DNA of 64,000 nucleotides from contig JBHLLT010000003.1 of assembly GCA_048938855.1 (NCBI GenBank), positions 130,800 through 194,799 of the forward strand, in the 5' to 3' direction. Below the pieces are notes generated by a model. The model saw only the letters and a program-made list of their open reading frames with translations. It was not told where the DNA came from and did no database searches. Made by a program: the position numbers and the translations under genes. Source of the DNA: Promethearchaeota archaeon. GTDB taxonomy: Archaea > Asgardarchaeota > Lokiarchaeia > Sigyniarchaeales > SOKP01. Of this stretch, positions 18,944 through 20,531 are shown one piece after another. How positions within the stretch are numbered: position 1 is the stretch's first letter; each line of letters opens with the position of its first letter.

Positions 18944-19201
18944 TTATTTAGTGAATTCTTTCATTACCATATGAGTATTTGATGCTGTAATTCCATCAAT
19001 CATATCTATTTTATTCGCAAATATTTCATACAATTCTTCGGGTGTTTCTACGACAACTTCTGCCAAAGCATCATAATCACCTGTCAGAGACAGTACTTTC
19101 GTAATTTGAGGAATACTTTTCAACTCTTCAATTACAGGCTTAATTACACTAATCCCTAATTTGCATAGAATAATAGCTTTTATTACCATATTATTTACCA
19201 T
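18944..19201 (-). CDS. Stand-alone Lrp/AsnC ligand-binding (RAM) domain protein
   Basis: About 80 aa: KAIILCK...VLSLTGDYDALAEV...IDGITASNTHMV; no HTH. Confidence 0.88.
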   Translation of the reverse strand: MVNNMVIKAIILCKLGISVIKPVIEELKSIPQITKVLSLTGDYDALAEVVVETPEELYEIFANKIDMIDGITASNTHMVMKEFTK

Positions 19202-19211
19202 CTCTCATTTA

Positions 19212-20531
19212 TTATGTTGGGGTTTTAACAACTTTATTAATAAATAAAATCTCAATATCTTTAATTTCATTTAACGGCTTTATTCTTAAATTTATGAGGT
19301 TATAAAAATCTTTTATTGAACTTGTTTTTACATTCAAGAGCAAATCATGAGCTCCAACTAAAGCATATGTAGAAATAACTCCATAGTATTTAAAAACTCG
19401 TAATGTAATTCTATTGATTGACCCTTTTTCTAACTTCAATAATAAGATTGCTTGAACCAAATTCTTTACTTCATGAGAATAACGAAGTATAAATGTAAAA
19501 ACTAAAAGGAATATAACAATGATCAATAACTCATAAGGAAAATATTCATTTACAAAAATTACTGAAAAAATTATAGATCCCATAGGATCTATTAAATTCA
19601 AAATACTATTCCATTGACTATATGTTAAATTTTCTGATTTCCAATTAACATTTGCGATAAAAATTAAGAGATATGGGATTATAGTTGTAAAAATAATTAG
19701 AAAAATTATATCCCATCTTCCCAAAATCATTAAGATGTCCTTAAACTGAGAAAAAAAAGTTCCTATTTCATTGGATAGAATCGTTTCAAAGGGGATGATG
19801 TAGATTATTAATACAAATGGCATCATGCATATTACTCCAAATAAAAAAGAAAGAGACATTTTAAGGAGAAATCTAGGTATTTTATAATTCCGGTTTTTAT
19901 TAATGATAATCGTCTCTTCACTTGAATATGCATCTCTGTTGATAGCTACATAGAGAAATGAGATTGAAATACTAAAAATTAGTAGATAAATTATTCCATT
20001 TAACATCACCGGGGTACCTCTCAATGCTGCTCCAATACTACCTACAAATATTAAAATAATGATTGTGAAAAAGAGTAATATAATATAGAGTACTTTAAAA
20101 ACGTCAAATCTCTCAAAATTCACCCCTTTTTCATAAAAAGCAATAAAAATAACGCTTAAGAGAAATCCGATCATTGTAAATGTAATTGAGGTCGTCTTTA
20201 AAGTTAAGAAGAAAAATATTATGTTAAGAATTATCCCAAAAAAGCCCAAATATAGATAATATAATATATTTTTTATATCAAAAAACCTTCGGTTTTTATG
20301 AAATAAATTAGAAAAAAGAAACATAAGAGGTATAGATTCGTTACGAGTAAATCTATTATTAATTATTACAAGAACAACAGCTAAAATTAATAAAGCTATA
20401 CCAGAAATTAAAAACCTTAAAAAAATAACCATAATAATTGATATATCTAAAAATAAATCCTGCACAATTATAGGGATAAAACCCCATAATAAATTTGCTA
20501 AGACTATATTAATAATTAGTTTATTCTGCAT
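19212..20531 (-). CDS. EamA/DMT-family transporter fused to a C-terminal Lrp/AsnC (RAM) domain
   Basis: ANLLWGFIP...VIFLRFLISG, about 10 TM, NLIDPMGSIIFSVIFVNE; soluble tail QAILLLK...TYALVGAHDLLLNV...IKDIEILFI. Confidence 0.8.
   Translation of the reverse strand: MQNKLIINIVLANLLWGFIPIIVQDLFLDISIIMVIFLRFLISGIALLILAVVLVIINNRFTRNESIPLMFLFSNLFHKNRRFFDIKNILYYLYLGFFGIILNIIFFFLTLKTTSITFTMIGFLLSVIFIAFYEKGVNFERFDVFKVLYIILLFFTIIILIFVGSIGAALRGTPVMLNGIIYLLIFSISISFLYVAINRDAYSSEETIIINKNRNYKIPRFLLKMSLSFLFGVICMMPFVLIIYIIPFETILSNEIGTFFSQFKDILMILGRWDIIFLIIFTTIIPYLLIFIANVNWKSENLTYSQWNSILNLIDPMGSIIFSVIFVNEYFPYELLIIVIFLLVFTFILRYSHEVKNLVQAILLLKLEKGSINRITLRVFKYYGVISTYALVGAHDLLLNVKTSSIKDFYNLINLRIKPLNEIKDIEILFINKVVKTPT

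Follow-up and report, generated by a model that had tools for sequence, protein, structure and literature searches.

Why does a predicted membrane carrier of an Asgard archaeon end in RAM, the amino-acid-sensing domain of Lrp-type transcription regulators, and why is a free copy of that domain encoded right behind it? The question is raised by a 64,000-nucleotide stretch of DNA (hereafter, the window: positions 130,800 to 194,799 of contig JBHLLT010000003.1, assembly GCA_048938855.1), which is AT-rich with a G+C content of ~31%. Its source genome (3.95 Mb) belongs to a Promethearchaeota archaeon of the Lokiarchaeia type, and Asgard archaea are the archaea closest to eukaryotes. On the minus strand of the window, an open reading frame (ORF) for an EamA-like protein of the DMT fold with a C-terminal RAM domain (the fusion gene) is followed by a small ORF for a stand-alone RAM protein (the free RAM). 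The answer that I favour, with slightly more confidence than doubt, is that a DMT-fold secondary carrier is gated post-translationally by a heteromeric sensor composed of the RAM tail and the free RAM. The pair consists of the following features.

19212-20531, minus strand: fusion ORF of 439 amino acids, with an EamA-fold membrane domain and a RAM tail.
19461..20531, minus strand: membrane domain (residues 1-357), a predicted 10-helix DMT/EamA fold with the N- and C-terminus inside.
19215..19460, minus strand: RAM tail (residues 358-439), a linker-less continuation of transmembrane helix 10 (TM10).
19202..19211, minus strand: 10-nt spacer, read from the sequence and preceded by two tandem TAA stop codons.
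18944-19201, minus strand: free RAM ORF of 85 amino acids, located 3' of the fusion gene in a different frame.

Both ORFs were found exactly where the initial annotation of this DNA had placed them, 10 nt apart on the minus strand, and a single operon is the best explanation for the two genes. Since the orthologues of the free RAM are mostly 81 amino acids long, the second ATG (19189) is probably the true start codon, which would give a protein of 81 residues.

The membrane domain is recognised by Pfam only in part. The EamA family matches residues 6-161 (39.4 bits; cut-off 28.2), which corresponds to the first EamA repeat, while the second repeat is unmatched, and an NCBIfam search gave no match on the membrane part of the fusion protein. 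In an AlphaFold2 model for which 50 sequences of the family were used (pLDDT 89.2, pTM 0.85), TM10 lies at residues 333-357, from where it runs straight into the first strand of the RAM domain. In a Foldseek comparison, the membrane part of the model resembles solved DMT carriers, namely LicB (7paf), TPT (5y78), YddG (5i20), and nucleotide-sugar transporters, with a probability of 1.00 and target TM-scores of 0.6-0.69. There are ten hydrophobic helices, and lysine and arginine residues number 16 in the predicted inside loops versus 3 outside. Thus, both termini, and hence the RAM tail, are predicted to be cytoplasmic. Seven residues (N80, E140, R220, W297, R350, Y351, and E354) are invariant family-wide, and all of them lie on the cytoplasmic face beside the RAM attachment; I only infer from this position that they would fit a mechanical coupling of the RAM domain to the carrier. 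Inside the membrane, R39, T283, P286, and P316 are conserved across the family, and D315 is invariant among the core orthologues.

Whether the tail takes the RAM fold had been set beforehand as a test of the initial annotation, and it was found to do so. The Pfam match (AsnC_trans_reg, PF01037; residues 365-431) is barely over the cut-off, at 26.2 bits against 25. A profile of 19 orthologues finds DM1 (2e1a) with an E-value of 2.6e-6 over residues 358-426, and the AlphaFold2 model has a beta-alpha-beta-beta-alpha-beta order in residues 359-430. This modelled tail superposes on DM1 with a target TM-score of 0.92 and a root-mean-square deviation of 0.9 Å over 73 columns, and on FL11 with 1.4-1.5 Å over 79 columns. 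The proposed architecture of ten transmembrane helices plus a RAM tail therefore stands, with both Pfam families over their cut-offs and with AlphaFold2 and Foldseek in agreement. The free protein had been described as an Lrp/AsnC protein devoid of a helix-turn-helix (HTH) domain, and so it proved. It is assigned to the RAM family by sequence (AsnC_trans_reg, 56.1 bits, residues 20-82), and the nearest solved proteins are FL11/PH1519, TTHA0845, DM1, and STS042. It is a single RAM domain of ~75-90 residues and nothing else, which defines a stand-alone RAM protein (also called demi-FFRP). No HTH family of Pfam or NCBIfam was found in the fusion protein or the free RAM at E<=1; the Lrp/LysM/AsnC models of NCBIfam match with their C-terminal halves only, far under the cut-off.

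Is this arrangement common? When 1.84 billion representatives were searched exhaustively with HMMER, the fusion family had just 79 matches at E<=0.001. The family is almost confined to Lokiarchaeia-type Asgard archaea, and its named members are Promethearchaeota/Lokiarchaeia. Relatives down to 20-30% identity are still ~420-480 amino acids long with a RAM tail, and in 37 divergent members Pfam detects RAM in 28 and EamA in 21. Of 400 genomes from the phylum, ~86 contain full-length matches and ~8 more contain partial ones, all in the class of the window (families f1-f7) or in one further family (f9). Within the genus of the window, 17 of 54 genomes have the fusion. In public annotations, members of the family are called no more than 'EamA family transporter' or 'Lrp/AsnC ligand binding domain-containing protein'. 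When the tail by itself was the query of a word-based search, family members came back and no other membrane-RAM architecture, a result limited by the sensitivity of the tool.

To count how often the two genes are paired, 84 full-length ORFs of the family, with 65 distinct tails, were taken from 92 fetched loci. The RAM tail is present in all 84, and a small RAM gene lies on the same strand within ~120 nt in 79, so the expected co-occurrence of the two genes is borne out. One of the five exceptions is a locus that ends 85 nt past the gene, and the others are four genomes of one clade (family f4). A first tblastn pass over 47 species loci had given the same pairing pattern. The pairing persists in relatives that are only 22-32% identical, and its layout varies: the free RAM gene may be doubled downstream of the fusion gene or placed upstream of it. 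Both variants occur as paralogous modules in one closed genome (G138:C1; L063, L087), where one module has two free RAM genes downstream and the other has the RAM gene upstream and genes for ornithine--oxo-acid transaminase (OAT) and carbamate kinase in its vicinity.

The tail and the free RAM have also been joined in nature. Four proteins of two lineages that are 77% identical (541 and 562 amino acids) consist of the carrier, the tail RAM, a linker of ~30 residues, and a free-type RAM in one chain; one of them is named by NCBI as a Spirochaetota metagenome-assembled genome. The linker is variable, with an indel. The second RAM of this bacterial fusion (Pfam 59.6 bits) is 35% identical to the free RAM of the window and has the same C-terminal EWEK. 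AlphaFold2 models two RAM folds (pLDDT 78-90) around a disordered linker, and the second RAM matches STS042 with a Z-score of 15.1. A metagenome scan for the one-chain protein found no locus. A tree of all RAM units groups the 67 tails in a clade with a support of 0.71 and the 66 free RAMs in a second clade. The first RAM of the one-chain fusion falls in the tail clade and the second in the free clade, both beside the same Asgard subfamily. As tails and free RAMs are each a single clade, the pair seems to have been inherited together. The natural one-chain fusion is classic Rosetta-stone evidence for a joint complex of tail and free RAM.

What differs between the two partners is the ligand site. 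In the structure of Grp with glutamine, the amino group of the ligand is bound by Asp102 of the G99-x-x-D102 loop, and its carboxylate by Thr132 and Thr134 from a chain of the neighbouring dimer; conservation of the two threonines throughout the Lrp/AsnC family is noted in the same paper (PMC2504300). The tail in the window has G393-x-x-D396, with Ile-Glu-Ile in place of the canonical Thr-x-Thr, while the free RAM in the window has both motifs (TGDYD and S-N-T). Family-wide, the glycine of GxxD is invariant (65/65 tails), and the aspartate is found in 60/65 tails and 60/64 free RAMs. Of the 64 free RAMs, 57-63 retain S/T-N-T/S, a site at which the tails have Ile, Val, or Leu. The split is the same across subfamilies. 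Thus, with GxxD alone the tail could contribute half a site, while both halves are available from the free RAM. This division of the motifs, like the one-chain fusion and the shared inheritance of the pair, lends indirect support to the idea of a free RAM that joins the tail of the transporter. It was considered whether the partner-less f4 tails have regained the full motif, and this was rejected; there are only hints (T-G-x-x-D, and one C-terminal T-Y-T), and the alignment is unsafe at these positions.

The favoured mechanism may be put as follows. A lone RAM domain would expose the beta-sheet face that is used for pairing in all solved RAM dimers. If so, the tail would pair with the free RAM, or tail dimers would stack on free-RAM dimers as FL11 does with DM1; hetero-octamers of the full-length Lrp protein FL11 with the stand-alone RAM protein DM1 are known (PMC2995911). 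As in solved RAM assemblies, the amino-acid site would be composite, with GxxD from one chain and Thr-x-Thr from the neighbouring dimer. Since the tail supplies GxxD only, intact sites that include a tail would form solely with the free subunit. Binding of the ligand would tighten or rearrange the RAM assembly, and this change may be passed through the rigid TM10 junction and the invariant belt on the cytoplasmic face, so that the carrier would be locked or released (trans-inhibition or activation).

Which amino acids might be involved? Neighbouring genes were clustered over 54 loci, and the counts given here refer to the testable core loci of the orthologue group of the window. The relevant features of the window are listed below.

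25416..26678, plus strand: OAT gene (TIGR01885, 529 bits, cut-off 378); 28/30 core loci.
26681..27598, minus strand: carbamate kinase gene (ArcC; TIGR00746, 374.6 bits, cut-off 358); upstream neighbour in 27/28 core loci.
30195..31127, minus strand: ornithine carbamoyltransferase (OTC) gene (TIGR00658, 359 bits); upstream in 15/28 core loci.
13404..18162, plus strand: kamA, kamB, kamD, and kamE (NCBIfam 602.6, 393.3, 921.7, and 393.9 bits, all over cut-off).
25202..25415, no strand assigned: divergent intergenic region beside the OAT gene, which in most orthologous loci lies directly upstream of the fusion gene.

In the core layout, genes for the alpha and beta subunits of a flavin dehydrogenase, OTC, and carbamate kinase lie upstream on the strand of the fusion gene, followed by the OAT gene on the opposite strand. 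Next come ~206 nt of intergenic DNA and then the pair, led by the fusion gene, with the free RAM gene second. Further downstream, on the opposite strand, a small GTPase gene and/or kamE-kamD-kamB-kamA are often found. OAT is the steadiest neighbour of the pair. The pair had been described as sitting at the end of a lysine operon. The kam genes are indeed real and nearby, but in the window they are on the plus strand, convergent with the pair and outside its operon. Moreover, kamD/E lie downstream of the pair in 19/29 core loci, so the lysine link is looser than the link to ornithine/arginine catabolism (28/30 and 27/28). With genes of ornithine/arginine catabolism and lysine fermentation as neighbours, the best candidate for the cargo or the ligand would be a basic amino acid. 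That the cargo and/or the ligand are basic amino acids (Arg, Orn, Lys) in the orthologue group of the window is a tentative assignment, to which I give rather less than an even chance.

A control element may also belong to the locus. A GGGAA-N5-TGGG element was found in 18 of the 20 distinct OAT-fusion intergenic regions that were aligned (L007-L034), in DNA that is otherwise AT-rich and poorly conserved. It has a single match in the window (25314-25327, minus strand), within the intergenic region next to the OAT gene. There, the element and a short inverted repeat (GGGATA-gaa-TATCCC) overlap, with a TATA-like TTTAAATATAAA ~25 nt further downstream. The element is probably the binding site of a regulator. 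No Rfam family matched in the window, and a scan of the window for sigma-70 promoters gave 45 sites against 39 expected, with a model that is uninformative for an archaeon.

Some other genes recur around the pair. In the window, the control region and the fusion gene are separated by two inserted genes that run in the direction of the fusion gene: one (20619-22583, minus strand) encodes 654 amino acids with an alpha/beta-hydrolase domain at the N-terminus and a long membrane region of multiple helices, and the other (22709-25201, minus strand) encodes a secreted acylase-like protein of 830 amino acids with a weak match of the PvdQ type. Hydrolase and acylase-like genes recur near the pair at varying positions in 9 and 7 loci, respectively. 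A gene for a Ras/Roc-type small GTPase (~180-190 amino acids; Pfam Ras, 163 bits) is convergent with the free RAM gene and lies 2-22 nt past it in 12 loci (including L010, L014, L016, L026, L030, L037, and L038); in the window it is not at that position. There, kamE is followed by a gene for a PHP-domain metallohydrolase of the CehA/McbA type (18172-18933, plus strand), whose end is 10 nt away from the stop codon of the free RAM gene. By tblastn, such a gene also follows kamE in loci L029, L034, L037, and L039.

Other RAM proteins exist in the same genome. A second RAM match, in a 436-residue open frame, was rejected as a candidate, being a soluble double Lrp-like protein and no second membrane fusion. 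A soluble protein of 434 amino acids (L001 6090-7394, minus strand; G000:C49) has an unusual architecture of two Lrp-like HTH-RAM modules, between which the middle segment resembles a TBP-type repeat (FPGLVIEMDNTPIRIIVFPNGKIVISG). The best PF01037 match of the genome is a second stand-alone RAM protein, of 77 amino acids (L002 5972-6205, plus strand; G000:C41, ~89970-90200). Read by eye, its gene neighbours are a Kce-like gene (3-keto-5-aminohexanoate cleavage enzyme) and a 3-hydroxyacyl-CoA dehydrogenase-like gene, and on this reading it would be another free RAM beside genes of the lysine-fermentation type.

Several observations weigh against gating of the carrier by the tail and the free RAM, or against the proposed cargo. 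In the four f4 genomes, no free RAM gene lies next to the fusion. The aspartate of GxxD has disappeared from both partners in one subfamily (Gly in the tail, Asn in the free RAM), so amino-acid sensing may not be universal. The clade of the free RAMs has a weak support of 0.38. The model of the one-chain fusion has a pTM of 0.73, and no solved chain spans both RAMs, which makes it a poor guide to how the two would pack. The Arg/Orn/Lys context is missing from 14 of 15 distant paralogue loci, with one having it. Within the genus of the window, kamD is present in 16/17 genomes with the fusion versus 22/37 without it, a modest link that is not independent of kinship. Finally, the membrane domain is an isolated DMT clade for which no characterised relative was found; transport is thus deduced from the fold alone, and the general statement of the initial annotation that EamA proteins export amino acids cannot be transferred to it.

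A broader version of the favoured mechanism connects it with the flanking genes. The RAM domain, so far known as the effector module of Lrp regulators that bind DNA, would here form a two-subunit allosteric gate with composite sites present only at the contact of tail and free RAM, and the free subunit may also shuttle to Lrp regulators, coupling the uptake of basic amino acids to the transcription of the flanking Arg/Orn and lysine fermentation genes. I regard this broader version as rather unlikely as a whole. Only slightly less credible to me is a transceptor or sequestration explanation: the tail would dock or release the free RAM according to the transport state or the amino-acid level, and the released RAM would join a full-length Lrp protein and alter transcription. 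The FL11-DM1 hetero-octamers are a precedent for the second step (PMC2995911), and sequestration of GlnK at the membrane by AmtB is established for the first (PMC10710835). The genome has about ten full-length Lrp-type genes as possible partners, and the divergent control region has its conserved GGGAA-N5-TGGG element. A shuttling messenger, however, fits poorly with the bacterial one-chain fusion, in which the free-type RAM is tethered permanently, and the free RAMs are a clade of their own that co-diverges with the tails and not with Lrp regulators.

Could the two RAM domains be there for assembly only? The tail and the free RAM may form an obligate heterodimer that stabilises or assembles the carrier by sheet capping or oligomerisation, without any control by a ligand. 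Strict pairing is what such a partnership would produce, and the loss of Thr-x-Thr in all tails and of the aspartate in both partners of one subfamily would be tolerated. Yet GxxD is nearly invariant in the tails (G in 65, D in 60 of 65), and a backbone-binding motif that stays whole in ~90% of the free RAMs over deep divergence is hard to explain without ligand binding. I therefore consider a purely structural role improbable.

More doubtful still is a non-transporting DMT-fold domain that is only the anchor or the input of a RAM signalling module. The sequence isolation of the membrane domain (those 79 matches in 1.84 billion representatives) would suit it, and so would the fact that Pfam sees the first EamA repeat only. 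Against it, the model has the complete 10-helix DMT fold at high confidence, R39, T283, P286, and P316 are conserved inside the membrane family-wide with D315 in the core orthologues, and no output domain is present. That the two genes have unrelated functions and merely share an operon is very hard to believe and was already disfavoured, as their adjacency survives to 22% identity and through changes of gene order, ending in gene fusion.

How does the gated carrier that I favour compare with known systems? In fold and Pfam family, the tail and the free protein are like DM1 (2e1a/2cvi) and FL11 (1ri7, 2e1c) of P. horikoshii, STS042 (2zbc) of S. tokodaii, and Grp (ST1022). The free protein, with ~80 residues, no HTH, GxxD, and S/T-x-T, is like other stand-alone RAM proteins, and FL11-DM1 is a precedent for an assembly between different RAM proteins. 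In contrast to the Lrp/AsnC (feast/famine) regulators, no DNA-binding domain is found anywhere in the pair system. Also unlike known RAM proteins, one RAM domain is continuous with a membrane carrier and no longer has Thr-x-Thr, and the presumed output is the transporter instead of DNA. The membrane domain has ten helices in two 5-helix repeats, like LicB (7paf/7b0k), YddG (5i20), the plastid TPT (5y78), the SLC35 nucleotide-sugar transporters, and PfCRT (6ukj), and the one-chain relative aligns with solved DMT carriers with VIA-align Z-scores of 19.6-22.9. It differs from these carriers in an identity of just 9-15%, in insertions in the TM2-3 and TM7-8 loops, and in the added RAM tail; the solved chains that match have 255-350 residues and cover nothing beyond the membrane part. 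At 9-15% identity the likeness is a fold match only, from which no substrate can be deduced.

A metabolite-sensing cytoplasmic module on a transporter is a known concept (MetNI, ModBC, PII-AmtB). MetNI (through its C2 domain) and ModBC are importers that a ligand-binding C-terminal domain trans-inhibits, and in GlnK-AmtB and SbtB-SbtA a small signal protein of the ferredoxin fold plugs the transporter. All are comparable in concept, since a cytoplasmic sensor of the beta-alpha-beta type, fused or encoded by a neighbour, lets the size of a metabolite pool control the transporter (PMC10710835). The glnK-amtB genes are, like the fusion and free RAM genes, a conserved gene pair. Here, in contrast to MetNI, ModBC, and the PII systems, the sensor is RAM and not NIL or PII, the transporter is of the class of DMT secondary carriers, and a fused and a free copy of the same domain would both be required. 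Only a few systems are known in which a metabolite-binding domain controls a secondary carrier post-translationally, and neither RAM domains nor DMT carriers figure in any of them. RAM, Lrp, ACT, and DMT are all absent from a review of how transporters are regulated that appeared in 2023 (PMC10710835). The initial annotation had known of no characterised example, and a literature search for fusions of EamA/DMT with RAM/AsnC likewise found no published description; the matches were a case of a regulator beside a transporter in Pseudomonas and a general survey of Asgard transporters that does not mention the fusion. New here are the bacterial proteins that unite carrier, tail RAM, and free-type RAM in one chain, the separate clades of tails and free RAMs, the counts behind the motif split, the distribution over the phylum, and the ornithine/arginine surroundings with their conserved control element.

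Reviews on archaeal Lrp proteins describe the role of stand-alone RAM proteins as unclear (PMC2995911). If the favoured mechanism is true, these proteins, of uncertain role ever since they were discovered, would have a concrete job, with a ligand site that is split between a transporter and a soluble partner. The results suggest an undescribed way for the amino-acid levels of the cell to switch a transporter directly. In Lokiarchaeia, the pair would then point to a likely route of entry or exit for the amino acids that these archaea ferment.

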